A stretch of DNA of 64,000 nucleotides from a virus (IMGVR_UViG_3300003702_000001:2160-66159), one strand, 5' to 3'. Counted from the first letter of the stretch, positions 27,000 through 63,100 are shown. A program made the numbers and translations. Notes: generated by a model not told the origin, from the letters alone.

Positions 27000-27203
27000 A
27001 TGAAATTAAGAATTATGAATGAAACAGGTCACACTGACCTAATATTGAACCAAGAAGAAATGATTGAACAGATTAATGACCACCCTACGCATTGGGTGTT
27101 TATTGATGGGGAATGTGTTTTGAGAGAAAACATAACCTCAGTGGAATGGGACACTGTAGATAATGTGAATCTCGTCCCGGCAATTGTCGGAGGAACTGAG
27201 TAA
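27000..27203 (+). CDS. Ubiquitin-like (beta-grasp; SAMP/MoaD/ThiS-like) protein with GG plus a 2-residue extension
   Basis: 67 aa; MKLRI first strand; WVFIDG; terminal hydrophobic strand VNLVPAIVGG-TE. Confidence 0.75.
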   Translation: MKLRIMNETGHTDLILNQEEMIEQINDHPTHWVFIDGECVLRENITSVEWDTVDNVNLVPAIVGGTE

Positions 27204-29559: not shown

Positions 29560-29839
29560 ATTAAATAACAAGGAATTATTCTACATTAGAAAAGAAGTAT
29601 TAGACTTATTCACTGGTGCTAGGGCAGAAGCGGGCTACAAAGATAATATCAATCGTAGGTATGAAAGATTGATAGATGGAGAAATAGCCACAAAGCAAAT
29701 CATAGCCTTTTTAAGAAGGTCACTAGCAGATGCTCATATTTGTTCTAGAAAGGAAGCAATTACCTTCCTAAAAGATATATACCATCAAAAGAAATATTAC
29801 GAGAGAAATTCAGAAGAAGAGAAAATATGGAAGAGGTAA
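29501..29839 (+). CDS. Hypothetical protein
   Basis: ORF track; true start probably near 29549. Confidence 0.6.
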   Translation: MTILISKMTPPVLVATVISKLNNKELFYIRKEVLDLFTGARAEAGYKDNINRRYERLIDGEIATKQIIAFLRRSLADAHICSRKEAITFLKDIYHQKKYYERNSEEEKIWKR

Positions 29840-31143
29840 TTAAAATGAAAGTAAAAATATTAATCCCCACGCCTGATGATTCTAGGCACAAATATTCAAC
29901 GAGTTTTTTGTTCAGAACTACAAACACAATGTATAGTTATAAAACCAGATTAAATAAGTTTGGAGAATATGTTATCGGTATAGAATCTGTAGATAGATAC
30001 AAAGATTCTTTAGACCCAACTTATTCTGTTATTGAAGATGCTTTAAAAGTTCATTTGTTTCCAACACATTTAAGATGGAATAATTCATCAGATAACATGA
30101 CAGGAATCCTAACTTTTAGATATAAAGATGGCGACTCAACTGTAGTATTTCAAAAGAGTAAACCCCACTTCTTTTTAAATGGGGCTAGACAGAATAAATC
30201 TATTGTATTAGGAAATATAGCAAGGATTATATTTCGTTCTTGCTTTGAGAGAAGCAGTAGAACTATGGACAAATATATAAGTAGACTATTACTGTTTCCT
30301 CCTAATGTTACTCATGCTATAGAAAATAGAACCTCCTATAATTTTTGGTTAGAAGGTAAAAAATATGAAGTTAGATTAACTACGAAACCTATTTCAGATG
30401 TTGAGTGTGCATTAGAAATATCTGATGGTATATGGGCTCCTATAAAAGTAAATGATTTAAATGGGTTTATTAATTTCCATAGATTTGATAAAAGAAGGTC
30501 ACAAAGATGGGGAATATCTCCTAAATATTTATGGGCTAATTTAATTGGTAGCCCACCAACAATGGCACAAGAGAAATTAATGATAGAATTTCTTAAACAA
30601 AATAGAACTCAAGACATTGTAGAAGATAGAGCAAACCAACTTCTTTCAGAATTAGAAGAAGAATATCCTAATAGAATTATAATGTTCGATTTCCCTGCGG
30701 TCAAAGCAAGGGACAAAGATAAGAATTCTACAGATGAATCTTTACAGGCCATGTTTGTTCGTGGTAAAATATGTGATTGGATTATTATTGATAACCAATA
30801 TAAAAGTAATATCCAAAGAGTTTCTACTTATTTGTATCTCACCATAGATAATGGTAATGGTAGAGCAGGTAGAGAAAGAATACCTTTTGATGATGGACAT
30901 TTAGTTGGCCCGATTTGCATAGATAATATTCATCGTAATTCTAGTAAAGGTGACCAATTTGCCGCAAGAGCAATGGCACTACTAAATGATAGTATGACTG
31001 TGGCAATGGTTCATACAATTAAATCGTATATTCCTCAAGATATTTTAGACAGAAAAATAGAGTGCAGAATAAATTCATTGTACCCGAAAGGAATGAAAAT
31101 AAAAAATGGTGATAATAATGATAGAAGTATGTTGGGAATGTAA
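29827..31143 (+). CDS. Hypothetical protein with candidate C-terminal E2/UBC-like domain
   Basis: GPICIDNI...ALLND resembles the UBC catalytic segment GxICLDIL...SLLxD; HPN motif absent. Confidence 0.5.
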   Translation: MEEVIKMKVKILIPTPDDSRHKYSTSFLFRTTNTMYSYKTRLNKFGEYVIGIESVDRYKDSLDPTYSVIEDALKVHLFPTHLRWNNSSDNMTGILTFRYKDGDSTVVFQKSKPHFFLNGARQNKSIVLGNIARIIFRSCFERSSRTMDKYISRLLLFPPNVTHAIENRTSYNFWLEGKKYEVRLTTKPISDVECALEISDGIWAPIKVNDLNGFINFHRFDKRRSQRWGISPKYLWANLIGSPPTMAQEKLMIEFLKQNRTQDIVEDRANQLLSELEEEYPNRIIMFDFPAVKARDKDKNSTDESLQAMFVRGKICDWIIIDNQYKSNIQRVSTYLYLTIDNGNGRAGRERIPFDDGHLVGPICIDNIHRNSSKGDQFAARAMALLNDSMTVAMVHTIKSYIPQDILDRKIECRINSLYPKGMKIKNGDNNDRSMLGM

Positions 31144-32017
31144 ATCAACAAGTATAACTTACGAAGAAAGATTAGGCGAAACAATCTGTGATACATGTGG
31201 TTTAGTTTTAGTTCAGAATGCCTTGGAAGAAACAATATCCCTTCCATTGGCTGAAAAGAAGACTGCTAACTATTTAGGAAGAACAAACTCTTCCTTTAAT
31301 TTAGGGTCAATGATATTTATATCAGACTTAAACTCTAAGAAATCAAGAACTTTGTACAATACTCAAAGATGGAATCAGATAGAATCTCCTAGTGATAAGA
31401 AAATGATAAAACTATGTAATATGGCTCTATCTAATTATAATGTTCAATATGAAATTAAAGCGCGAGTTCCTCGTTACTATAAGATACTTCAAGGAAAATA
31501 TGCTTTGAGGGGAGTATCACTTGATATTAGGGCGGCGGCTCTAACTTATTATATTGTTAAAGAAATAGGTATTGCTACTACCATAAAAAGACATGCTCAC
31601 TACACTAGGGTCACTGAAAAGGAAATTTCAAAGAACGCTAAAGTAATAGCAACAATTCTAGGCAAGCCTTGGATATTTGCTCAAGTTAATGTTGAGGGTT
31701 TAGTAGATAATGTAGGTCATAATTTATCTTGTACGGATTCAGAATACCTTGGTAATGTTAAAATACTAGCCCACCAAGTAAATGAGATATTAGATATACA
31801 TTGTGAAAGACTTACTGCCGCATATTTAGCGGCATGTTTTTATTTAGTTTCTATCTTTCAAAGAAAACGATATTCTCAGGTGCGACTTGCTCGCGCTAGT
31901 GGAACAACAGAAGTATCATTAAGAAGTAACATGAAGAAATTACTAATTAAATATGGCACTAAAAAGGAAAGATTATACTATCTAACCCTAGAAGAATTTA
32001 TGGATGGAGTAAGATGA
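31106..32017 (+). CDS. tfb: Transcription initiation factor IIB (TFB) homolog
   Basis: Zn ribbon CWEC...GETICDTCGLV; two cyclin-like repeats (AAALTY, AACFYL, TTEVSLR). Confidence 0.85.
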   Translation: MVIIMIEVCWECKSTSITYEERLGETICDTCGLVLVQNALEETISLPLAEKKTANYLGRTNSSFNLGSMIFISDLNSKKSRTLYNTQRWNQIESPSDKKMIKLCNMALSNYNVQYEIKARVPRYYKILQGKYALRGVSLDIRAAALTYYIVKEIGIATTIKRHAHYTRVTEKEISKNAKVIATILGKPWIFAQVNVEGLVDNVGHNLSCTDSEYLGNVKILAHQVNEILDIHCERLTAAYLAACFYLVSIFQRKRYSQVRLARASGTTEVSLRSNMKKLLIKYGTKKERLYYLTLEEFMDGVR

Positions 32018-32589
32018 GAAGAAAGATATTGATTATAGGAGCCGGAGGAATAGGTAGTCATTTAGTACAGTTTCTATCTAAGGTACAGGAATACCGTATC
32101 GTTATTGCTGACTCTGATTCATACGAGAAAGACCAAGAACGCTATCAAAACTGCTATCCTAGAGATTGGGGTATAAACAAAGCAAAAGTAATGGCTAGTC
32201 ATTATACTGAGGTTACCCCCATTGAATATGATATATTGACAGATAAGCAACTTAAGGGGTATGATTTAGTTATTTGTTGTGCCGATAATTTAGATGTAAG
32301 ACGCTTAGTTTATAGGCAGGGGCATGGTAGCCATAGTAAGGTGAAGTGGTTAGACCTTAGAGCGCAAGGACGAAACGGTATATTAATCTCACATTTAATT
32401 AACCCCTCATTAACAGATGCTTTCTTAGAAGGCCCCGAAGGTTCATTCTCTTGCCAAGCAGAAAGTTGGGATGGCAAATCTAAAAATATAGATATGTTAC
32501 ACATAGTTATGGCTAGTATTGGCGCACAATGGATTCAGAAGTGGTTTAATAAAGAAGAAGTGAATGAGTATGTGGTGATGAATGTATGA
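32014..32589 (+). CDS. E1-like ThiF/MoeB-family activating enzyme
   Basis: IIGAGGIGS, ADSD, NKAKV, DLVICCADNLDVR; candidate catalytic Cys in SFSCQ; no Zn-binding CxxC pairs. Confidence 0.9.
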   Translation: MRRKILIIGAGGIGSHLVQFLSKVQEYRIVIADSDSYEKDQERYQNCYPRDWGINKAKVMASHYTEVTPIEYDILTDKQLKGYDLVICCADNLDVRRLVYRQGHGSHSKVKWLDLRAQGRNGILISHLINPSLTDAFLEGPEGSFSCQAESWDGKSKNIDMLHIVMASIGAQWIQKWFNKEEVNEYVVMNV

Positions 32590-32828
32590 GTGAAGAGGAA
32601 GATGAAGATATAGAATTCACAGATGATGATGTTGGTGAGATATTTAATACTATTACTAAGGATGGAGTTTATACCCGCGCAGAAATAGTTAAGTTAACTT
32701 GTCCTGCTTGCGGAGAATCATTTATAGGAACTAAAAGACACGCGGGTGGTTTTATTGCAGGACATAAAGCATATCATGAATTTGTTAATGAAGAAGATGT
32801 TTTGGTTCAATCAATGGGGGGAGCCTAA
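32586..32828 (+). CDS. Small acidic C2H2-type zinc-finger protein ending GGA
   Basis: CPACG...HKAYH; C-terminus QSMGGA. Confidence 0.7.
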   Translation: MSEEEDEDIEFTDDDVGEIFNTITKDGVYTRAEIVKLTCPACGESFIGTKRHAGGFIAGHKAYHEFVNEEDVLVQSMGGA

Positions 32829-33261: not shown

Positions 33262-33480
33262 ATGTATAATTATTGCAAGTGTATGGGTGGTTTCGTCATG
33301 ATTCCTGAAACAGTAATTTTGAGAGAAGAAACAGAAGCAGAAAAACAACATAAAAGAATTCTTGCTACTATGAAAAGAACAAATAATCTAAGAGAATGGC
33401 ATAAACAAAACAATAAATATATTTTAATAGTAACATTTTCTTTAATATTCACTATAGTATTATTATGGGTGAGTGCATGA
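33262..33480 (+). CDS. Small protein with C-terminal TM helix
   Basis: YILIVTFSLIFTIVLLWV. Confidence 0.55.
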   Translation: MYNYCKCMGGFVMIPETVILREETEAEKQHKRILATMKRTNNLREWHKQNNKYILIVTFSLIFTIVLLWVSA

Positions 33481-33986
33481 GTGAAGACACAGTAACACAA
33501 GTGGTTAAAATGGATAAAGAAGAATTTGATATGACGAATGAAGATTGGAAAGAATCTATTTCTCAGTTATGGGAAATATGTAAAGAAGATATGCTTTGGG
33601 TTTATCCCAATGCTGAGACTGAGGCTTTTCTCAGTCAAATATGGAAACAATCGCTTGAAGCATTTGATAAACCTAGAGAAGTTCAGATTGTTATAGATGC
33701 AAAGAATGATATTTATATGAGTGTGGGGTCGGCAAGTTTTGTGTCGTTCCTAAATCAAGATAAAAACTTAGGAGGAATGAAACTTCCTATTAAAAGTTGG
33801 ATTCATACTCATCCATTTGGTATGGCTTACTTCAGTGGAACAGATTGGTCAACCATTAATACATGGAAAGGAGAATTAGAGTCAGCAATTGTATTGGGTG
33901 ATGCTCAATACCTTGCTTATGATTGTGAGAGTCAAATCGCCAAGCGAATTGAATATGGAATATATAATAGAGGTGAAGAAGAATGA
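33465..33986 (+). CDS. JAB/MPN+ metallo-isopeptidase
   Basis: REVQ...WIHTHPFGMAYFSGTD (E...HxH-x7-SxxD). Confidence 0.9.
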   Translation: MGECMSEDTVTQVVKMDKEEFDMTNEDWKESISQLWEICKEDMLWVYPNAETEAFLSQIWKQSLEAFDKPREVQIVIDAKNDIYMSVGSASFVSFLNQDKNLGGMKLPIKSWIHTHPFGMAYFSGTDWSTINTWKGELESAIVLGDAQYLAYDCESQIAKRIEYGIYNRGEEE

Positions 33987-35751: not shown

Positions 35752-37280
35752 CTCTAGCAAAATTCGCTACGATGTGCGAACTACTTGAATTTGAAACACC
35801 TACTAGAAAGGCTCAGATAATCTCTGAGAATTTAAGTTCTTTTGAAGACAAAGCACAAATTATAGAAATCTTATCCTTAGAATTATTACCAAATAATATT
35901 GGAGGATTAAGAGCAATAAAATGGGCGGCTAGTGCATTAGGTTTATTTGAAGATGAAGTAGAAACATCTGTATCTATGTGGGGTGATTTAGGTGAAGGCA
36001 TGTTTCAATATTATGATGGAGATAATGTTCACTCAGATATGAATATGAATTTGTTTAGGGCTATGTTACAAAAGGACTGTTCTTCAATACATGCCCCACA
36101 ATATAGAGTTTTTGCAGAAAGACTATGTAAAATGTCTGCTGTAGAAAAGAAATGGTTTTTACGCTATTGGCTACGCAAGCCTAGAAATGGAGTAAATAAT
36201 AAGATACCTCTTAAGGCAATGGCTGTGCATTTCAAAGTAGAATACAAAGATATAGTGAAGTGGCATCAGTATAATACAGCATCAGATATTTGTAGTGAAT
36301 TAGAAGAGGGAAACATACCTGAATCTAAATTAGTTCATGGACAGTTTGTTAATCCAATGCTGGCTAAGGCTCGCAAAGGAAAGGAAAGGCCAACGAATTA
36401 CATTGTTGATATTAAGTATGATGGTAATAGGTATCAGATTCACAAAGAAGGAGAGTCAGTAATCATATTCAATAGAAAGGGTAAGATTGTATCAGACCAA
36501 TATCCTGATGTTGTAGATATAGTAAGTGATTTTAAAGTGTCTAGTGTTATTCTTGATACAGAAATCTATCCTGTAAATCCTGATGGTTCTCCTGCACCCC
36601 ACAAATTATTGGGGAAAAGAGTTCATAAGAAAGATAAGGGAGAAGCAGTTAGAGAATGCCCGGTTAAAATGGTAGCCTTTGATTGTCTATCAATGAAGGG
36701 TGTTCCATTGATAGAAAACCCTTTATCATATAGAATAGCATATTTGACTGCAATTCCTGAAGAATATCAGGCTGAAACTTTTGATGACCATACAATTCAA
36801 TCAGCATACAATATTGCTATTAGTAGAGGATTTGAAGGAATAATGATTAAGGATGCTAATGCTCTCTATCATGCTGGAAAAAGGTCTAAGGCTTGGTTAA
36901 AGTATAAGCCCCCAAGAATTTCTTTAGATGTTGTTATCACTTCTGCCAAATATGGTGAAGGAAAGAGACATGATGTTTTTGGTACTTATGGTATTTCCGT
37001 AATAGATGGAAGTGATTATGTATCAGTTGGTTCTGTTGGGACCGGATTTTCTGATTCTGATTTAACTCTATTGACTACTGACTTAAGAAAGATTGTAGAA
37101 TCTTATGAGAAAGACACATTTCATTTCTTACCTAGAGTAGTTCTAGAAGTTACTGCTGATTTAGTATCTACAGATGACGACGGTAATATAGGACTTAGAT
37201 TTCCTAGGGCTGTAAGAGTAAGAGAAGATAAGTATGCTAAAGAAGCCGATACCCTACAAACTGTTAGAGAGATGATGTAA
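35748..37280 (+). CDS. lig: ATP-dependent DNA ligase
   Basis: KYDG (motif I), DTEI, AFDCL, EGIMIK, WLKYK, LRFPR; start reset to MTLAKF. Confidence 0.95.
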   Translation: MTLAKFATMCELLEFETPTRKAQIISENLSSFEDKAQIIEILSLELLPNNIGGLRAIKWAASALGLFEDEVETSVSMWGDLGEGMFQYYDGDNVHSDMNMNLFRAMLQKDCSSIHAPQYRVFAERLCKMSAVEKKWFLRYWLRKPRNGVNNKIPLKAMAVHFKVEYKDIVKWHQYNTASDICSELEEGNIPESKLVHGQFVNPMLAKARKGKERPTNYIVDIKYDGNRYQIHKEGESVIIFNRKGKIVSDQYPDVVDIVSDFKVSSVILDTEIYPVNPDGSPAPHKLLGKRVHKKDKGEAVRECPVKMVAFDCLSMKGVPLIENPLSYRIAYLTAIPEEYQAETFDDHTIQSAYNIAISRGFEGIMIKDANALYHAGKRSKAWLKYKPPRISLDVVITSAKYGEGKRHDVFGTYGISVIDGSDYVSVGSVGTGFSDSDLTLLTTDLRKIVESYEKDTFHFLPRVVLEVTADLVSTDDDGNIGLRFPRAVRVREDKYAKEADTLQTVREMM

Positions 37281-37753
37281 TGATAGAAGTAGGCAGTATG
37301 ACCATCATAGATGATTGGCCCTATAGATGTGTTAAAATCGAGGATGGTACTGCTCACTTAAAGCGACTCGGAGATGAAACTAGGGGGCGCATGAGGAAAT
37401 TTACTGTTGATATGTGCCCCTACATTGACGAAAATAAAGACTTAATCACACCAAGAAAGCCTAGGCCCAAGAGAAAGACAGCAAAATCTGTAAACATCAT
37501 GAAAATCATTAGAGATGAAGTTGATATGAGTGTATCGAATGATATGGTGTATTTTGTAAGAGAATGGCTGAATACTATTATCCGTAATTTAGCATCTAAT
37601 GCTCAGGAGAATGCTATAAGAGAGAGTCACAAAAGAATCTCCGCTAAACACTGGTATTGGCTGGACATTCCTGTTGGTGTGGGTAATGGTTGTTGGGAAC
37701 AACAAGATAAATTTGCTAAGGAATGGAAACTAGAAGACTATGAGGAAAATTAA
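37280..37753 (+). CDS. Histone-fold protein 2 with N-terminal beta domain and basic linker
   Basis: IMKIIRDEVDMSVSND...IIRNLASNAQENAIRESHKRISAKH; linker PRKPRPKRKTAK. Confidence 0.7.
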   Translation: MIEVGSMTIIDDWPYRCVKIEDGTAHLKRLGDETRGRMRKFTVDMCPYIDENKDLITPRKPRPKRKTAKSVNIMKIIRDEVDMSVSNDMVYFVREWLNTIIRNLASNAQENAIRESHKRISAKHWYWLDIPVGVGNGCWEQQDKFAKEWKLEDYEEN

Positions 37754-43570: not shown

Positions 43571-45322
43571 ATGATAATCTCACAGGCTAGTAATGGAATC
43601 TCTTTATCATGGAGAGATTATGACCCCGATACAGGGGAACAAAATGCTAGATGGTCTAAATTTATTAAATATGAAGATTTCCCACCTTTCTTTTTTGTTG
43701 GAGAATCTGAACATATGCCTGAGAATTTTATAACAACTAACCGTTGGGGTAAATCTACTATAATAGAAGTTAAATATGAGGAAGGAGATTATGTTAATCT
43801 ACAAAGAGAGAAATTAATAAAAGTTCTTTGTAAATATCCATCTCAAATACCCCTAGTAAGAAAGGAATTTATACAAACATATGAAGCAGATGTTCTCTAT
43901 ACTCATAGATATGCTATTGAAGAAATAGATGAAATGCCAGAGTATAATTTAAAGAAATGGTATTGGGATATTGAATGGCAACAGGGTGGAAAACATGATG
44001 GTGCTATAACTTGTATCGTTGTGTTTGATAATTATCTTGGTGAATTTTATAGATGGTCATGGCTACCAGAAGACTTAACTAATGTAGATACTGATTCATA
44101 TGAATATGATAAGTATGGAAAGTTACATGCCAAAACTAAGACAAGTGACCATAAAACTTCTACAGGAGATATATTTAAAATAAGAGATTTTACTTATCCC
44201 AAAGAAATACAGATGTTATCTGCATTTATATCTGAATGTTTAATCCAAGACCCCGACATGTTAATTTCTTGGTTTGGTAATAAATTCGACTTACCAAAAG
44301 TATTGGAAAGATGTGTTGTAAATAAATTAGATGCAAGATTACTTTCTCCTATTTTTGAAGTGGATGGATTCATTCAAAAGAATAATGAATATATATTTAG
44401 AAAATCTTCATTTAATTCTATTGAACAACCTATCAAGGGAAGAATATGTCTTAGTTTAGATTTAGCCTTTGAAAGACAATGGAATGATGCTCAGAAAGGA
44501 ACCTTACCTTCTTTGGCTTTAGATTATGTATCTGATTTGGTTCTTGGTGAAAAGAAATTAGTTAGTAAAAAATTTCCTGATAAACAAGATTTCTTTAGAA
44601 GAGCATGGGAAGAGGATAATGAAACATATTTAGAGTATGCTTTAACAGATGTAGATTTGATTCGTAGATTAGATGAAGAAAATTATTTATCTGAAGCGAT
44701 TATATCATTACAACGATTACTTAAAGCACCATTTGAAGCATGTTTTTATGCTAGTCATATGGGTAGTATCTATTTTATGAGACATGCTTGGTGGAAAGCC
44801 CCCACTAGAGATGAGGGACCAAAGACTAGTTATCAAGGAGCAATGATATTTGACCCATTGATAGAAAAAACTAATGGATTACATATAGGTGTGGCGGCTT
44901 TTGATTTTGCAGGTCTTTATCCATCAGTTTGTGTAGCAAGGAATATTAGTTGGGAAACTAAAAGCGATGAACCAACTAAGTTTGCAGTTAATATAGCAAT
45001 ACCAAGAGATTTCTCAGAAATTACTAAGAAAGAAATGCTATATTATAAAACTGATAAACTAGGAGTCTTACCTAAAGCAGTAATTGAACTTAATAGTTTG
45101 AGAACAGATTATAAAAATAAGATGAAAAAAGCAAAGAGCCAAAGAGAATATAATAAATGGTTCAACAATCAAATGGCTGTTAAAAGATTGAGGGCATCTT
45201 TTTATGGTATTATTGGTTATCAAGGATTTGGTTGGGCAGATAGAGATTTAGCCGCATCAATAACAGCAAGTGCTAGAGAAGCAATCAGAGAAGCCACCCT
45301 CACAGCGAGGAAGATAGTATGA
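43571..45322 (+). CDS. polB: Family B DNA polymerase, N-terminal part (exonuclease, motifs A and B)
   Basis: WDIE, NKFDL, YALTD; DFAGLYPS; KRLRASFYG; stops before motif C. Confidence 0.92.
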   Translation: MIISQASNGISLSWRDYDPDTGEQNARWSKFIKYEDFPPFFFVGESEHMPENFITTNRWGKSTIIEVKYEEGDYVNLQREKLIKVLCKYPSQIPLVRKEFIQTYEADVLYTHRYAIEEIDEMPEYNLKKWYWDIEWQQGGKHDGAITCIVVFDNYLGEFYRWSWLPEDLTNVDTDSYEYDKYGKLHAKTKTSDHKTSTGDIFKIRDFTYPKEIQMLSAFISECLIQDPDMLISWFGNKFDLPKVLERCVVNKLDARLLSPIFEVDGFIQKNNEYIFRKSSFNSIEQPIKGRICLSLDLAFERQWNDAQKGTLPSLALDYVSDLVLGEKKLVSKKFPDKQDFFRRAWEEDNETYLEYALTDVDLIRRLDEENYLSEAIISLQRLLKAPFEACFYASHMGSIYFMRHAWWKAPTRDEGPKTSYQGAMIFDPLIEKTNGLHIGVAAFDFAGLYPSVCVARNISWETKSDEPTKFAVNIAIPRDFSEITKKEMLYYKTDKLGVLPKAVIELNSLRTDYKNKMKKAKSQREYNKWFNNQMAVKRLRASFYGIIGYQGFGWADRDLAASITASAREAIREATLTARKIV

Positions 45323-45928: not shown

Positions 45929-46026
45929 TGATAAATTATTGTAGTTGCCAATTTAATAGAGGTACTAGAAGTATAACTAAAAAAGGATGTTGTGCTTATT
46001 GTGGATTAGAGGTGGATGAAAGATGA
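45925..46026 (+). CDS. 33-aa Cys-rich peptide
   Basis: Translated by hand: MMINYCSCQ...GCCAYCG...; its stop overlaps the polB C-half ATG. Confidence 0.45.
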   Translation: MMINYCSCQFNRGTRSITKKGCCAYCGLEVDER

Positions 46027-46907
46027 AAGTAGTTTATGGTCATACTGATTCTATTTATGTTAAAATAGATTCTATAAAGAAGGCAAAGTCTATAGTAAAA
46101 ATAATTAATAATCATGTTAGAAGTAAATTCCCTAATGTTATGGGTTTAGAAGAGCATCCTATTAATCTAGAGTTTGAGAAATACTTTGAGAGTTTGGGGG
46201 TAGGAGCAACTAAGAATAGAAATGCAGGTTTAATTACTTGGAAGGATGGTAATTTTCTTATAGATAATGAATTTTTTATGACAGGTTTTACTGCTAAAAG
46301 AATATCAGAAACTTCTCTTGCGAAAGAAGTACAAATTAAAGTATTGAATATGTGGGTTGAACAAAAAACTAATGAAGATATACTGGAATATCTCACAGAT
46401 ATTTATCAAACTACTCTTAATGGTAATATACCATTAAAAAAGATTCTAAAAAGAAGTAGATATAAAGAAGAAAGATTTCATGTATATTGCCAATCATGTA
46501 AGAAAGCATATTATTTAACTGATACCAAATGTAATCATACCTTAACTACTTCGGAAAAGAGAGGTAGGGGTTGGGTATCAGCCGGGAAAAGACCATCAAT
46601 AGGTTCAGGAATAGTAGGTGTTTTAATGTATAATAAACTAAATAAGGAACCAATTAATGATACTTATTTATTTATGAAAATAAAAAATAGTATTCATACT
46701 ATAACCCATCCTATAAATAATATGTTGTTCAATCCTACTTACATGGCTGGTCTAGTAGAAGAAGATTTCAAAGATTTTACTCCTGATTGGGAACACTATG
46801 CACAATCAATAGTTAAAAAAGCAACTCCCATATTCAATGCTATGGAATGGGACATATATGATATTACAAAAGATGCAAGTCAAACATCTTTAGATGAGTG
46901 GTGGTAA
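46023..46907 (+). CDS. polB: Family B DNA polymerase, C-terminal part (motif C, thumb)
   Basis: MKVVYGHTDSIYV, LEFEK, KNRNAG, TGF..KR. Confidence 0.9.
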   Translation: MKVVYGHTDSIYVKIDSIKKAKSIVKIINNHVRSKFPNVMGLEEHPINLEFEKYFESLGVGATKNRNAGLITWKDGNFLIDNEFFMTGFTAKRISETSLAKEVQIKVLNMWVEQKTNEDILEYLTDIYQTTLNGNIPLKKILKRSRYKEERFHVYCQSCKKAYYLTDTKCNHTLTTSEKRGRGWVSAGKRPSIGSGIVGVLMYNKLNKEPINDTYLFMKIKNSIHTITHPINNMLFNPTYMAGLVEEDFKDFTPDWEHYAQSIVKKATPIFNAMEWDIYDITKDASQTSLDEWW

Positions 46908-54118: not shown

Positions 54119-57100
54119 TCATGTGAATGTGCTCCATATTGCTGACTTAGTTCCGCTTCCTGAGTTTGATAAAGCAACCGTTGTTGCAGGTGAAGTTAAG
54201 CCGTTTATCCACACTTTGAAACCATTAGACACACCGACATTACCCCCTGAACCTGAAATGTTAGGTAGTGAGTCTGAAGACCATGCTAAAATATTATAGG
54301 GCGTAGAAGTTTCTTGATTATTAGCCCAATTTGAAGTCATAATAGCATAATATTTTGAACTATCTATTGTTAATGATTGTCCCTGTGCTACTATCCAATC
54401 TACTGAGCCGTAACCTGTTGAACCGCTAAGGTCAACAAACTTTGAAGCAGCCCAACTAGCCGTAGCGATTAATGTGCCATTAGGAGAACTATCTATTAAA
54501 TTTGAATCTGTTAATTCATATAGTGCGGTAGTTACTCCTGTATCAGCAAGACCTGACGATAAAGAATTAATGTAAATCCATGCTTTAGATAGAGTTTTTG
54601 ATTCTAAGAAAGAAACCAAATTACCATAAGCCCAATAAGCATTCATCCCTCCGTTTGTAATGCTACCAGCATTACCATTCATCATCGGAACTCTAGTACT
54701 AGCCGTAAACTTGAAAGCAGCACTATCTGTATTACCACCTACTGCTGTTCCTCCAACAGTTAAAGAACCCGGAATATCAACAACACCGCTTGAATTACCT
54801 GTAATCCAAACAGGAGTTCCATCTCCTGATGATATGGATAATTGGTCATCACCTGTTGCACTTGCTACATCAGCATTTCCAATAACTACATTGTTATCCC
54901 CAGAAGTGATGTTATTCCCGGCTTGATACCCAATGGATATGTTGTTAGCACCACCATTCATGTGCGATTGAGCCTGATACCCTACGGCAGTATTGTAATT
55001 TCCATCGGCCCAATTCTGACTGTGACTTTGATAACCTAATACCACATTTCCTGTGCCACTACGAATCTTGTAGCCAGCATCTTTGCCCATTAGGATATTC
55101 TGCCCTCCTGTTGTCCAATTGTAGAATGCACCCTTTCCGACAACTACATTGTCGTGACCACCTGCTTCTCCTGATTGGCCCCTACCTGCATTTGCACCAA
55201 TAAGTGTGTTACCTGATGTTCCTGTAATGTAAAGATGAGAATTATATCCTATGGCCGTATTGTATTCACCTGCCAAATTAGCACTACTCGCCTCATGTCC
55301 GACAGCAACATTGTAATCCCCAGTTGTCGTAACATCGAGTGCATAGTTTCCAATAGCGATGTTCTTCTCACCACCATTAACAGCACCACCGAGAGCGTCG
55401 TAACCGATTGCGATGTTATCTGATTCTGTGTCTGCGGCAACTAAAGCACCCTTTCCAATAGCGGTGTTTCTTGTGCCTGTCGTGATTGCATATCCTGCAC
55501 TCTCACCAATTCCTATGTTGTAGTCACCTGTCGAGAGAGTTCTCAGAGAATATTTCCCTATTCCTATATTGCTTGAAGCATCGTCGCTAAGACCATACAT
55601 GCTTTGATGCCCAATAGAGATATTATCATCCCCATCGTTAGCGGTAGCATTAGCCGTAGAGCCAAGCGCGATATTGTAATTACCACCATCCAAGTATCGT
55701 CCAGCACTATGTCCGATTATAACATTGGATGCTCCATTGGTATTAGTCAATCCTAATGTATCTCTCCCAATAGCGATATTATTGCCACCAGTCGTCAGAG
55801 TCTTGAGAGAGTTTTTGCCTATACCAACATTGTTATCACCGGAAGTCAATGCCGCGAATACATCTTTACCGATACCAACATTTCCTGATGCCGCATCAAG
55901 AGTCCCATGTGGGGGAGCAGCACCATCAGGAGATATGAGAATACTGTCTGTGAAGTTCGTGATGTTGCTGATTACATCAGTTAAGCCATCAAGTGAAGAA
56001 GCACCACCAACAGCAGAACCTCCAACAGTAAAGGAACCTACAACATTGACTGTTCCATCAGCCGCAATAGTCATTCTTGAAGTTCCGGCTGTTGAGAAAC
56101 CAAGTTGGTCTGCATCAATTCGATACATTCCTGTATTAGTATCGCCATTGAAAGTGTAGTAAGGGGAGGCTGCGGTTCCACTCAGAGCCATAAATTTACC
56201 TGATGAGCCACCGATATAAAAATTGGTAGTAGTAAATCCAACATCACCATGCACTTGCATTTTGTTGCCATATGATGCGTTTGAACCTATGGTAGTATTA
56301 CCTGATTGGTCTATTGAAAAGAAAGTTGAATCAGATGCTTGGTCATGAACTTCAAAGGCATTACCTGTTCCTAATTGAACAATCTTCATTAGTGCAGTAT
56401 CGCTAGTATCTGATATTAAGAACTGTTCTGAACCACTTGTTGAAGTCCAAGTATAACCCGTAGTGCTACCACTAACAGCCGCCCATGCTGTTGAACCATC
56501 TGTTTGAGCAGTTAATACATAATCATTGGTTCCTGTTTTTGCTACTGGTAAATCATATGAGTCATTAATTCTAATTGCTGATGTTCCACTTCCACCACCT
56601 GAAATGTTTAGTTTATCACTTCCATCCCCATATAATTTACCACTATTGATTTTAATTCCTGCTGTTGTAAATGAAGTTTTTACACTCCCACCATGAACAA
56701 ACGAGAAACTATTACCACCATTATGGGTAATACCTGTGTCTGTATCTCCTGTGAAACTCAAAGCAGGAGTAGTTGAATAAGCATCTGCTAATCGAAGTGT
56801 TGGGTCTGTTAAGGTTTTATTTGTTAGTGTCTGTGTTCCTGTTAATGTAGCAACAGTTGAATCAATGGCTATATCATTTGCATTCGCAGTTATACCTGTT
56901 CCACCAATTACATTCAATGTTGGATTAACTGTGCTAGTTCCTGATTGAGTCATTCCTGTTCCAGCAGTAACAGAAGTTACAGTTCCACTAGAACCACTTG
57001 AAACAGTTTGCCAAGAACCATCTCCACGCAAGAACTTAGTTCTATCTCCTGTTACTGCCTTTGGTATTAATCCCGGATTTGCTGCATTACTTGAGTCTGC

Positions 57101-60100
57101 TCCCTCAAAGGTATTCAACTGAATGTCTTTAGTTCCACCAAGAGTTATCTTAGAAGAAGTTCTTCCCTTTATAGTTGCATTATCAGCAATAGTAGCCGCA
57201 GTAGTTCCACCATGTCCTCTAACACAACCTGTAAAGGTAGTGCTAGTAACACCTACATATCTAACCAACTCACCAGAAGCCAATTCTAATGTTCCAACAG
57301 TATCGAATCCAGTAGTTGAATCAACAGTAACAGTAGTAATTGATGAGTTATGTGACCCATTTGCTGATGTTGCTCCCTTTTGTGTTCCCTGTGATACAGC
57401 AAAGGCACTCACCTTATCTCCTGTAATTGCACTATCTGGTATCTTTGCGGTAGTTACTGAATCATCACAAATTGTTCTAGTGATAACTGCATCATCAGCA
57501 ATCTTTGGTTCACTAATTGCTTCCGATGCGATTTCATTTGAATCTACAGCGTTGTTAGCAATTTGTAAGTTTTCTATTGCGTTATCTGCTAATTGTGCAG
57601 TATCTATTGCTTTGGATACTAATTTACTTCCAGCAATATTACCTGTCAATTGTGCATTTGTGACTGTACCTGTTAAACTAGTAGTAGGTAGTCCCGTTGC
57701 ATTAGTTAGAACACCACTAACAGGTGTTCCTAATGCTGGTGCTACCAAAACCATACCTGAAGCCATTGTTCCTTGAGCCACTTGAGCCGCAGGTAATGCT
57801 GTTGCATTTGTTAAAACTAATGCTGATGGCGTTCCTAATGCTGGCGTTACTAATGTTGCATTGGTTAATGTTCCAACAGATGTAATTGCTGTTTGTGCTG
57901 CACCTGTAACTGTTGCGGCTGTTCCTGTTGTATTCTGATTCAATGTTGCTATTCTTTCCTTTGCGATTGTTCCACTTGAGAAGAAACTTGTTGCTGAATC
58001 GCCCGCTTGAGCCGTAGTAGCCGTAGTTGCAGTATCAGCATTACCTGTTAAAGCACCAACAAAAGCACTAGCAGATATTGGTTTGTTTGAAGCAAGTCTA
58101 GCATTAGTATTATCCCAAGTAAATGTAGGCGCACTAGCATGAGAACCAAATTGTAATCCAGCCGCATTAGTTAATGCTAGGGTTGAAGCACCACTAGCCA
58201 CAGTAATTGTTTTATCTACTATATCTAAATCAGTAGCACTTACAGTATTCAAATCACCTGTAATATTGAAATCTCCACCAACAGTTAAATCTCCTAGAAT
58301 GGTTATAGTATCATCTGCAACTCCAATAGTTACATCATCGAAATCTGCCGCAAGACCACTTTTTAGGTTAGCAGTTGAAACATTAACATCTGTATTGTGA
58401 TTTATGTCGCTTACCTTATCATCGTTTACATTTACTCTAAACTCTAACTTACCAAATGCTTCCCTAATCTTATCTGCGGCAACAACATTACTTTCTGAAC
58501 CAGCAGTTGAATATCCTGTTAATGCTAGGTTTGCTATCTCAGTAGCAGTTTGGTCATCAGTAGCATCTGATGGTGCATGAGATACTTGTGAATGGTCATA
58601 ACCAATTTTACCTCTATCGCCTCTATATGCTGTGCTACTTGTTTCACCTAATGCTAGTGTAGTAAAGGCTGTAGAATTAAAAGCATTTGAACCAAATATC
58701 TCAGATGAGAGTTTTCTCTTTTGAGAGCCATTATCAAGAACAACAAACTCATCTGATGCAGTTACCCAAGCCTGAGTCATATCTGCTAAGTCTGATAAAT
58801 CCACATCAAGAGCATTACTATTCAAATCAAGTAAAGTTCCAGCACTTCTTTGAGTGTTAGTATCTGTTGATGTAATTGTAACTGCACCTGCAGATTCAGT
58901 AATAGTTACATTAGAACCTGCTGTGAATGCTAATACCTCAGAAGCACTTAATGTATTACCACCAGCAGTTATACCCCTCCAAGTATTTGTATCTGTTTCA
59001 GCCGCCCATGTGATTGCTCCACTACCGTTGGTCTTCAAGATGTAATTCGCTGAACCATCGCTTGTAGGGAAGGTGTAAGCATTGTTGAACATTACCGCAT
59101 TATTTGAATTTCTTCCCACTAATACCTTTGAACCGGCTGTGGCTCCACCATACAGATAGAGATTTGCGGCACTCCCATCTCCATCTTGAATCTGAATAAA
59201 GGCTGCATCATCTTCATCTCCGGTTTCGAGAATCAAATCTGCTGAGCCGCCGGATGTAAGTTTTGCATTAGCAGTCCCATTCGATATGGCTAAAGTCGTG
59301 GCTGAAACATCATAAGTGAACTTTGCATTACTTTCAATCTCGTTACTCGTTAAATCTCCATAGGCGACCTGATTATCTGAAATTGAACCACCGATGGTAC
59401 CACTTGATATTGTTTGCCAAGTATTATCACCTCTAAGGAATTTAGCATTTCCTATACCTGATGCTGATAACATCGCTAAATCCACAGCACCGGAAGCAAT
59501 TGTTAACGCAGTTGCACCTGTTACATCACCTGTATGTGTGGCATTTGTTACCTTAGCAGTATTAGCAGTAACAGCAGAAGCGTCGGTATAACTAGTCTTA
59601 GCAGTATTAGCAGTAACAGCATCAAATACTGTTGGAGTCATTACTCCACTTACAGATGTAGTGGCTGCTGGAATTACTGCATTAGTCCCATCAGAAGATA
59701 CTATCGTTCTCGCTGCTGTTGAACCTGTAATAGTTAGATTAGTACTTACATTGTGGTTTATATCTGATACCTTTGCATTGTTAGCAATAACATTATCATA
59801 CAATGCTTTACTCATTACTCCTGAAACACTAGCCGTTGCTACAGGTATTGTTACATTATTTCCTGTAGATGAAGTTATTACTCTAGCAGCAGTAGTCCCT
59901 GTAATACCTAGATTAGTTGCTACATTCGCTTCTGCACCCGAAGGAGCATGAGCCGCTTGGGAATGAGTGTAAGCAGTATCATAGTTAGTTTTCAATGCAT
60001 TAGTAAAGTTATTTTGTGTAAGACCACCATCTCCAACTGCAATTGCAGAAGAGTATGCTACATCTGCTGTTCTTGCTAATGTTCCACCAGCAGTAGGTAA

Positions 60101-63100
60101 TAAAACATTGTAGTCGCTTCCAACTACACCTGCTTTCAAGGTTAATTCATTACCATCTGATACTGTGCCTTCAAACACTACTCCATTTGTAGTTGAAACT
60201 GTTTCGACATTACTTGTTGTGGTTGTTCCGGTAACAACCAATGAACCGGGAATTGTTACTACAACATCTGTATCATCACCAATAGATACTGCACTAGATA
60301 TATCCCCTAATCTAGTTATCAGATTAGCAGTATTCACATTTATATCTGTATTATGATTTATATCTGATACCTTTGCATTATTGGCTATGATGTTATCATA
60401 TAATTCATCAGTTAATGCTCCCCATGCATTAGTTGTTGCCGCAGGAATAGAAGCATTTGTTCCGTCACTTGATGTAATAGTTAAAGCAGAACCTGATGCG
60501 CTTACTCCTAGATTAGTGCTTACATTGGTAACCTTAGCAGTATTAGCACTAACTGCCGAAGCATCTGTATAACTAACTTTGGCTGTATTTGCAGTTAAGT
60601 CATCAAACATCTCATCAGACATTACACCCCAATTATCAGTATCAGCCAACGGTAATGATGCATTTGTTCCATCAGATGATACTACATCTAATTTAGTTCC
60701 ACTTCTGCTTACAGTAAGATTAGTGCTAACATTGGTAGCCTTTGCTGTATTGGCTGTAATGGCTGATGCTTGACCACCACTTATGGTAGTAGTATCACCC
60801 GCTAATGCTGTTGATGAAGAAGTACCTAATGCTAAATGAGCCGCTTGAGAATGAGTATATGCTGTGTCCCAATTTGAATTAGAAACATTGAAAGTTAAAT
60901 CGTATGGGTCACCATCTGCTCCACTATCTGTGTCTGTCCAATTAATATCTATGTTAGTGCCATCAATGAACTTAATTTCCTTATTCTCTGTAATGGTTAC
61001 TTCTGTTCCATCACCATCTTCAAGGACGAAACCTGCACCCATATCAACAGTATTAGTATATGAAGTAATATACCCAGAACCATTGGTTAATTGATTGTTA
61101 TTAGTTATATAGTTAGCATTGGTTGCACCAGTATAACCCAATTGTGATAAAGTCATTGTTCTCTTAGTCATGGCTGTAATATGCCCAGTAGCATTAGTTA
61201 CTAAGGTATCAATAACCTCTGCATTGGCAGTATCAATATTGGTAACAGCCGAATTAGGATGAGTATAAATTGTATCATCATTTGGTAAAGTAATAGCCAT
61301 AATATATGGGTTACTTGTTGTTCCCACACCACTTAGATTAGTTCCTGCTGTTCCTGTTGCGGCGGTCATCTTAAAGAATTGATTCTCAATAATAGTTTTA
61401 TCATCATTATCATCATCTCTAATTTTGAAACCTGCACCCATTGTGTTAGTATCAGTATCAGGAGTTCCCCAACTAAATGAACCATCTCCATCAGACCTTA
61501 GATAATTAGTTGTTGCACCATCACCTGAAACATTTAATTGAGTGGCTCCTATTGAATTATCTGTAATTGATATATCATCTGCATTTGCAGTTATACCAGT
61601 TCCACCAATTACATTTAGTGTAGCAGTTCCACTTGACGCACCACCAGTTAAACCAGTTCCAGCAACAACTCCTTCTATATCACCGGAACCAGACCCGAAG
61701 TTTCGTGAATCAATATATTCTTTAATAGCACCTGAAGACATTAAATGGTCGTCAGTATCAACGAATTCAGTACCAATATCAATATCGTCAAATGCATGAC
61801 CACTAAGAGATATTGACCCTGTTGTTGTAAAGCCACCCGCAGTAATTGTTCCGGTAGTAGTATCACTAGCATTATTCTTTAGGAATGCATCATCTACATT
61901 AAATGTAGTTCCACTTAGAGTTAAGTTAGTTCCACCTGTATATTGAGTATTTTCATGAGGTTTAGCATCAACATATGCTTTAATAGACTCAGCAGAAGCA
62001 ACATTTGTTGATGAAGCACCCGTCATTGAATCGCTATCTATTAAAGTTAATTGTGTGTTAGTATCAGTTTCATGAGTATCAATCATACTCTTAACATCAG
62101 CCGGAGTAAATCTCTTTATTGCCGTTGAAGTTCCTGCTGTTCTTTCAGATGTAGATACTTGAGATATTTGATTATGATAAGCAGTTTCAACTTGAGAATC
62201 AGATAATTGAGTGTTTGTGTTTGTATCTGTAAATACTGCTCCTGTTGGAACTGCTGTCTTTACATTATCAAAAGCCCAATCAGAACTTATTGAAGTAGTA
62301 GAAGCACCATTAGTAGGAGTGCTACTTATTGCTCTATGGGTATCTGTAGTATAAGCAGGAATTCCAAATGTTCCATCATGCTTTAAGAAATGTCCACTTG
62401 TTCCAGCAGAAGGAACTAGTCCTGAATTGCCTTCAGATATAGCAGAAGAATATGCAACTCCTGATGTTAAAGCAACTGTCCCTGTAGCATTAGGTAATGT
62501 AACTGTTCTATCTGCTGAAACAGTTCCAGCCTTTAATAACACTTCATATTCATTAGCCGAACTTCCCTCAAATTGAACTCCATTACTTACAGTAGTGGTT
62601 TCAACATGCTCAGTTGTAGTTGTTCCTGTAACAATTAAAGAACCCGGAATAGTAACTACATCATTTGAATCTCCAATACTAACAGCATTACTACCGAAAC
62701 TACTTCCAAGTCTAGTCTTCAAATTAGCAACAGAAACATCTACATCGGTATTAGTTACCTTAGCAGTATTAAGTGCAACTGCATCAAATATACCTGTGGA
62801 CATTACACCACTCACTAAAGTAGTGGCTACGGGTATTTCTGCATCTGTGCCATCAGAAGAAGCAATTGTTCTTGCTCCTGTTGTTCCGGTTATAGTTAAG
62901 TTAGTAGTTACATTGTGGTTTACATCAGTTGCCTTAGCATCGTTTAATGCAGTTCTCTTTTCTAGTTTACCTACACCTACTAATATAGTATCTGTTGCTG
63001 CTACAGCACCACCTGTTGCTGTGCTTAATCCAGTTAATACTTTTGCTATTACCTGTGCATTAGTTAATTGTGTATCTGTGTTTGTTGTGTAACTAGGAGT

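Follow-up and report, generated by a model that had tools for sequence, protein, structure and literature searches.

A candidate HPN-less E2-like protein family in the ubiquitin-like gene cluster of a group B magrovirus

Protein-tagging cascades of the ubiquitin type, with an E1, an E2 and a protease, are so far on record from eukaryotes, from a few archaea and from anti-phage systems of bacteria, but no virus of a prokaryotic host has been described as using one. In the bacterial systems Bil (BilABCD), CBASS Cap2/Cap3 and Bub, a ubiquitin-like protein (Ubl), an E1, an E2 and a peptidase for maturation or deconjugation are encoded in one string of genes located in a defence island. According to the Bub report, these pathways work via serine oxyesters (10.1101/2024.11.21.623953); they show that diverged E1/E2 chemistry exists. 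The SAMP/UbaA/JAMM, QbsE/QbsD and CysO/Mec+ systems combine a small ThiS/MoaD-like protein ending in Gly-Gly (GG) with a ThiF-type E1 and a JAMM protease, and neither SAMP nor the ThiS/ThiF/JAMM systems are known to have an E2-like component. Among archaeal viruses, the nearest precedent are the Asgard-archaeal viruses (Nidhogg), for which only E1-like (ThiF) genes are reported, presumed to exploit the E2 and the Ubl of the host (10.1101/2021.07.29.454249). In this study, we analyzed a stretch of 64,000 nucleotides of viral DNA (IMGVR_UViG_3300003702_000001:2160-66159; in the following the window, with all positions counted from its first nucleotide), which encodes a protein of 438 amino acids (aa), here named E2L, among genes for a Ubl, an E1 and a JAB/MPN+ metalloprotease (JAB). 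The window is a group B magrovirus, because it contains a split gene for family B DNA polymerase (PolB), the published signature of this group (PMC5434244). Magroviruses are tailed and infect Marine Group II (Poseidoniales) archaea; in the surface ocean, they rank among the most abundant viruses (PMC5434244).

Like the bacterial operons, the magrovirus gene set has a Ubl, an E1, a candidate E2 and a peptidase in one string, and the match of its E1 to the E1-E2 models of PADLOC adds to the likeness to bacterial ubiquitination-like operons. It differs from them in its position in the replication module of an archaeal virus, in the minimal E1 of 191 aa and in the gene for a TFIIB-like protein (TFB) inserted between E2 and E1, and at the sequence level no membership of the set in the Bil, CBASS Cap2/Cap3 or Bub families was found. 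Whereas Bub is reported to use serine oxyesters (10.1101/2024.11.21.623953), the magrovirus E1 and E2L keep cysteines. The Ubl, the ThiF-type E1 and the JAMM protease are shared with SAMP/UbaA/JAMM, QbsE/QbsD and CysO/Mec+; in contrast to these systems, a UBC-like protein with an invariant cysteine is fixed in the magrovirus cluster. Unlike Nidhogg (10.1101/2021.07.29.454249), the magrovirus itself encodes Ubl, E1 and JAB together with a candidate E2. In the literature searched, no paper combining magroviruses with ubiquitin or ThiF was found, and the main magrovirus papers make no mention of ubiquitin, ThiF, JAB or TFIIB.

With slightly more confidence than doubt, we favour the reading that E2L represents a new E2-like family which lacks the His-Pro-Asn (HPN) motif, is cryptic at the sequence level, is fused to an unexplained N-terminal module and takes part in a Ubl cascade encoded by the magrovirus. 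If Cys364 of E2L carries the viral Ubl, these archaeal viruses would run their own E1-E2-protease tagging cascade. An HPN-less E2 family invisible to sequence methods would also bear on the minimal active site of E2 enzymes and on the spread of ubiquitin-type systems between viruses and cells before eukaryotes. The parts of the cluster are all small, soluble-looking proteins and hence accessible to experimental tests.

The E2L family and the predicted fold of its C-terminal domain

The gene for E2L (29827..31143, + strand) encodes an N-terminal module (residues 1-254; 29827-30588, + strand) and a UBC/UEV-like C-terminal domain (residues about 255-420; 30589..31086, + strand), followed by a tail whose final ~15 residues show disorder and no conservation. 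A first-pass annotation, made by a model from the sequence of the window, had proposed an E2/UBC-like domain at 30700-31143 of an orphan protein. The C-terminal location of the domain was retained, whereas its start had to be moved upstream to about 30589, because the first predicted helix spans residues 256-279, and its end lies at about 31086. The term orphan does not apply: 349 homologues were found at E ≤ 1e-3, falling into 161 clusters at 50% identity, and in IMG/VR 228 confirmed stretches carry an E2L homologue. Nearly all homologues are about 400 aa long and originate from marine metagenomes or marine viral contigs of up to about 100 kb; BFVD contains three unnamed viral homologues. Among 185,579 species genomes, E2L was present on three contigs only, all of them in metagenome-assembled genomes (MAGs) of marine bacteria. 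These contigs (L205, L206 and L207) had been binned to Maricaulis, Altibacter and Balneolaceae and are most likely magrovirus DNA mis-binned into bacterial genomes. Since nearly all homologues are located on viral contigs and the three MAG contigs are most likely mis-binned, the family appears to be restricted to viruses. A role as stand-alone E2s was rejected for short database proteins in which the Cys motif alone is present (P0218, P0257 and others), because their appearance is that of fragments or of chimeric calls on short contigs.

Conservation in the family peaks in the block from G361 to D388 (30907..30990, + strand), which reads GPICIDN-x-H-x-NSS-x-GDQFAARALALLND in three alignments (A1, A2 and A5). 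In the 58-member alignment A1, the full block is G361-P-I-C364-I-D-N ... N-S-S-x-G-D-Q-F-A-A-R-A-L-A-L-L-N-D388, and residues G361, C364, D366, N367, S373, G375, D376, Q377, R381, N387 and D388 are invariant. E2L of the window contains the corresponding peptide GPICIDN...ALLND, with Cys364, the proposed thioester-forming residue, encoded by the codon TGC at 30916..30918 (+ strand); both the 438-aa open reading frame (ORF) and this codon had been correctly given in the first-pass annotation. That annotation had made its proposal dependent on the conservation of the cysteine in homologues, and Cys364 was found to be invariant in the 58-member alignment, in an 88-member alignment reaching down to about 23% identity and in a 57-member alignment of sequences translated directly from viral loci. 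Further invariant residues are Q258-N259-R260 at the start of the first helix of the domain, G313, D317 and Q330 in the sheet, and E166-N167 and W203 in the middle of the protein, where the segment 158-207 nearly matches the Cys block in conservation. Judged by their invariance, D366 and N367 beside the cysteine as well as S373, D376, Q377 and R381 are candidates to replace the catalytic role of HPN. A reading of E2L as a Cys-His protease was rejected because His369 is not conserved, and a zinc site was rejected because E2L has only one invariant cysteine. The fold hints for the N-terminal module were only faint and pointed to LolB and the T-fold (QueF-like, DHNA) in residues 1-113 and to a barrel of the Tudor, Spindlin or SH3 type in residues 157-220.

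Structures were predicted with AlphaFold2 (AF2) in template-free runs, using input alignments without any known E2. The model of full-length E2L reached a predicted local distance difference test (pLDDT) score of 85.9 and a predicted template modelling (pTM) score of 0.64, while the values for residues 255-438 were 83.6 and 0.80, respectively. The modelled domain starts with a long helix (256-279), followed by the strands 284-290, 305-312, 317-322 and 332-338, a hairpin (350-363; strands 350-354 and 357-363), Cys364 and the helices 374-386, 388-394, 396-401 and 404-407. The six strands from 284-290 to 357-363 correspond to the beta-strand-like segments that had been proposed ahead of the cysteine. 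The model shows the layout of the UBC superfold, consisting of the alpha-1 helix, a four-stranded antiparallel meander sheet and C-terminal helices that pack against one of its faces. Cys364 is located directly after strand 357-363 and 10 residues ahead of helix 374-386, in the loop between the sheet and alpha-2.

When both models were compared exhaustively with 48,161 chains using VIA-align, UBC, UEV or RWD domains made up most of the 50 matches listed for each of them. The UEV domain of Tsg101 was the best match (score 5.4-5.8; 115-116 residues aligned, 4.2 Å); further matches were FANCL (4.8-5.0), UBE2S (4.7-5.0), the BubCD-BubB complex (4.7-4.8), Ubc9 (about 4.4), Ufc1 (about 4.2), CdnG-E2 (3.6-3.8) and Cap2 (3.6). 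After re-examination of the top 1000 chains from Foldseek, each of the 50 matches listed was a UBC or UEV domain, and the E2 core was covered end to end. In the superposition with Ubc9, 127 of 156 residues were aligned, with residues 5-165 of the domain model covering residues 2-157 of the chain. That the modelled C-terminal domain is closer to UBC/UEV/RWD than to any other solved fold, and collinear across the whole E2 core, is supported but weakly scored.

According to the models, E2L would share with canonical E2s (UQ_con; UBE2S, Ubc9, UbcH5/UBE2D, Rad6) the N-terminal helix, the antiparallel sheet, the Cys loop and three to four C-terminal helices. In both, C-[IL]-D follows a Gly and the next helix ends with LL-x-D, and they can be related by a full-length collinear superposition and a profile alignment. 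Unlike canonical E2s, E2L carries an insert of 14 residues behind the first strand and one more hairpin ahead of the cysteine, and the domain is fused to the end of a conserved module of ~250 residues. UEV (Tsg101, Vps23, Mms2) and RWD domains have no active-site cysteine, whereas E2L keeps an invariant cysteine in its most conserved block.

Gene order and partner proteins

In all of the 80 related loci, as far as they were long enough, the genes follow the order Ubl, E2L, TFB, E1 and JAB, and the only loci without E1 or JAB are those ending too early. The fuller order comprises Ubl, sometimes an ORF of 127 aa, the ribonucleotide reductase (RNR), E2L, TFB, E1, sometimes a GG-ended zinc-ribbon protein, JAB and, later, a ligase. 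Some loci are without RNR (L075, L080), so that Ubl is closer and directly upstream of E2L. In 78 of 80 loci, the TFB gene separates E2L from E1. Even for E2L homologues of 27-28% identity, the most divergent ones placed on contigs, TFB or a TFB remnant and then ThiF follow, and in one of these loci Ubl is found two genes upstream of E2L. Within the window, the ends of the E2L, TFB, E1 and zinc-ribbon genes overlap, and the overlapping or abutting arrangement of E2L, TFB and E1 suggests co-translation. TFB (31106..32017, + strand; Pfam TFIIB Zn-ribbon, 3.9e-7; NCBIfam TFIIB, 1.6e-14) overlaps both the stop of E2L and the start of E1, and may be a partner or a substrate and not a bystander. TFB, which is sometimes shortened to 102-210 aa, is kept in this place even at 27% E2L identity (L081, L082, L085).

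The Ubl (27000..27203, + strand) is a ThiS/MoaD-like protein of 67 aa which ends with AIVGG followed by TE (alignment A4). Its C-terminus consists of GG plus 0-2 variable residues in 54 of 54 distinct homologues, and 12 of 57 members match Pfam ThiS (best E 8.4e-4). Three histidines are invariant in the family (H11, H28 and H31, within N-E-T-G-H-T and H-P-T-H-W). Such residues are uncommon among ThiS/MoaD-like proteins and may indicate a metal site or a site of interaction.

The E1 (32014..32589, + strand) is a minimal ThiF-like adenylating enzyme of 191 aa. Pfam ThiF (3.4e-13) covers only its residues 3-104, while the divergent C-terminal half holds the invariant G-S-F-S-C-Q with Cys147. In NCBIfam, ThiF, PRTRC ThiF and SAMP-activating E1 (1.5e-6) were matched. 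GxGxxG, D33, D35, K56, D91, N92, R96, D114, R116 and C147 are invariant, and no conserved CxxC zinc motifs were seen in the alignment summary of E1. The JAB protein (33465..33986, + strand; 173 aa) matches Pfam Prok-JAB weakly (0.059) and contains the full JAMM motif, with E72, H114, H116, S124 and D127 invariant (E...HxH-x7-S-xx-D); it is likely to be the enzyme for processing and deconjugation of the Ubl. Ubl, E1 and JAB all look functional from their conserved residues, and the retention of a cysteine both in E1 and in the UBC-like protein fits a thioester relay.

Between E1 and JAB, a zinc-ribbon-like protein of 80 aa is encoded (32586..32828, + strand), for which weak Zn-ribbon matches were obtained. 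It ends with GG plus exactly one variable residue in 25 of 25 distinct homologues, contains the conserved segment R-H-A-G-G-F-I-A-G-H-x-A-Y-H-E-F and was detected by phmmer in 33 of the 80 loci. Possible roles are that of a second GG-ended modifier of a non-beta-grasp type or that of a partner.

From the observed conservation, predicted fold, gene order and partner motifs, we infer the chemical steps, the targets and the role of the N-terminal module under the favoured E2-like reading. The JAB protease would trim the 0-2 residues past the Gly-Gly of the 67-aa Ubl, and the exposed C-terminus would be adenylated by the 191-aa ThiF-type E1, whose invariant Cys147 would probably hold the Ubl in thioester linkage. 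The Ubl would then be transferred to Cys364 in the UBC-like domain of E2L (residues about 255-420) and from there be moved onto lysines of viral or host proteins. The conserved N-terminal ~250 residues of E2L would fold into an alpha/beta domain and a small SH3/Tudor-like barrel with a helical linker, and could serve for target choice or for docking of E1; for the N-terminal region, the first-pass annotation had suggested an E3-like, substrate-recruiting role.

Arguments for and against an E2-like function

Several results weigh against the favoured reading. As already stated in the first-pass annotation, E2L has no HPN motif: canonical E2s carry it about 8-10 residues ahead of the cysteine, whereas none was present upstream of Cys364 in any aligned member, and the stretch before G361 is variable. 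The motifs YPF-x-PP and W-S-P-A of the UBC core are absent from E2L as well. Also, profile similarity to canonical E2s was not detectable: searches of Pfam, PHROGs, NCBIfam and PADLOC with E2L gave no meaningful match to any family, and scanning of 88 members singly at E ≤ 5 gave no E2 family either, including UQ_con (PF00179) and Prok-E2. PDB sequences gave no match to the E2L family profile at E ≤ 10, and ESM Atlas, whose own model of E2L was poor (pLDDT 0.34), returned no usable neighbour. With Foldseek, nothing significant was found in the PDB (best E: full model, 0.0022; domain, 0.27); among the weak rows, many scattered E2s were present for both models. The E2/UBC-like identity proposed in the first-pass annotation is thus partly supported, by the predicted fold, the invariant cysteine and the Ubl/E1/JAB context, and not by a sequence-profile link to E2 families. 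Likewise, the structure prediction yielded a UBC-like model with mostly UBC/UEV/RWD folds among the 50 VIA-align matches listed, while Foldseek significance was not obtained.

For the correspondence of Cys364 to the catalytic cysteine of E2s, 106 distinct giant-virus E2 genes were fetched from IMG/VR by a back-translated HPN...G-x-I-C-x-D pattern and compared with the profile of the C-terminal domain of E2L using hhalign in local mode, since global mode gave a meaningless terminal alignment. The local alignment is collinear over 116 columns (query 10-152, template 1-131) and pairs Cys364 with the catalytic cysteine and A-L-L-N-D with S-L-L-x-D-P. Its probability was 12% with P 0.0024, compared with P 0.36 for a reversed-profile control. 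Block-shuffled profiles that keep the short motif equalled the real score in 3 of 60 trials; therefore, the sequence signal appears to be essentially the short G-x-I-C-[IL]-D motif, which is weak alone. By linear bookkeeping, the cysteine is residue 110 of the domain; subtraction of the 14-residue low-confidence insert and of a 3-residue offset gives about 93, which we take to be the position of the catalytic cysteine of Ubc9, a value derived from alignment ranges and not from a measured superposition. Residue-level equivalence is accordingly not established by the weak profile alignment and this bookkeeping, as the structure comparisons give ranges and not residue pairs. Joint folding of E1, Ubl (1-65) and E2L (255-425) with E2L as partner gave a score of 0.00 and counts neither way.

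The gene context also has its limits as an argument. The shared gene order indicates retention under selection and has to be taken as one evolutionary observation and not as independent recurrence, because all loci are syntenic relatives. Moreover, the archaeal SAMP/UbaA systems are not known to use any E2 for conjugation, and sulfur carriage is the function of ThiS/ThiF/JAMM trios, for example QbsE/QbsC/QbsD and CysO/Mec+; an E2 is therefore not demanded by the context. What takes the case beyond chance is the predicted fold together with the conserved gene context, which we regard as two independent lines.

A chance resemblance, in which E2L would be an unrelated protein of the replication/transcription module that combines a common alpha/beta arrangement with a coincidental motif, has a catalytic or structural cysteine of a different kind and is merely syntenic with the Ubl genes, is unlikely in our view. 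It would agree with the missing Foldseek significance, the missing hidden Markov model matches and an hhalign score that is equalled by 5% of the block shuffles, and synteny within one viral order is no proof of functional linkage. It would leave unexplained why the matches listed belong almost purely to one superfold with full-length, collinear alignments, why the cysteine sits at the topologically correct place, and why the E2L, TFB and E1 genes overlap or abut in an order that survives to 27% identity. Somewhat less probable is a sulfur-carrier pathway, in which the adenylated Ubl would be converted to a thiocarboxylate, JAB would only mature its C-terminus, and E2L would not be a protein-conjugating E2 but would use Cys364 as a persulfide or sulfur-relay residue, or act as a synthase that consumes sulfur, in the making of a thiolated nucleotide, tRNA or cofactor. 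The match of the Ubl to Pfam ThiS, the best matches of E1 (ThiF, MoeB, SAMP-activating E1) and the adjoining RNR gene are in line with it, as is GG plus 0-2 residues beside a JAMM protease, which is the established pattern of QbsE/QbsD and CysO/Mec+. However, RNR does not belong to the core, because it is missing in the loci with Ubl directly upstream of E2L (L075, L080), and for the Cys domain the nearest fold is of the UBC type and not one of a known sulfurtransferase. Sulfur donors and sulfur-consuming synthases (ThiG, MoaE, CysM, PP-loop thiolase) were looked for with Pfam in the scanned ORFs from 19 to 53 kb. No domain of a rhodanese, a cysteine desulfurase, a PP-loop protein or a synthase for thiazole, molybdopterin or cysteine was found there, but several neighbours are unannotated, and an enzyme of the host could take on this role.

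We give little credence to an inactive UBC-like scaffold that would bind the Ubl or tagged proteins in the UEV/RWD manner of Tsg101, Vps23 and Mms2 without forming a thioester, with E1 alone conjugating as in sampylation. The absent HPN, the established independence of sampylation from an E2 and the highest structural scores, which go to UEV domains, would fit such a role, whereas UEV domains characteristically have no cysteine, and the cysteine of E2L is invariant in 88 members amid the invariant D366, N367, S373, D376, Q377 and R381, a pattern that is expected more for active sites than for binding scaffolds. Similarly improbable is a more far-reaching form of the E2-like reading, in which a self-contained cascade would use E2L as an E2-E3 hybrid, with the N-terminal SH3/Tudor-like barrel picking the targets. 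Two GG-ended modifiers, the Ubl and the 80-aa zinc-ribbon protein, would then be attached to replication or transcription proteins such as TFB, histone-fold proteins or the clamp and thereby reprogram the infected Poseidoniales cell.

Further features of the window

The window is AT-rich (GC about 33%) and encodes a class II RNR, TFB, an ATP-dependent DNA ligase, an RFC-like AAA+ protein, a histone-fold protein, an ERCC4 nuclease and the split PolB. The two PolB genes are located at 43571-45322 and 46023-46907 (both + strand) and are separated by a gap of ~700 bases. An ORF of 3237 aa (54119-63832, - strand), which is open at the window end and thus possibly longer, lies in surroundings with a raised GC content of about 40-42%; a Pfam match at E ≤ 0.001 was not found for it. 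Directly after the ligase gene, a protein of 157 aa is encoded (37280-37753, + strand), which shows a weak match to the archaeal histone / CBF-NFYB histone fold (Pfam, 2.3e-4).
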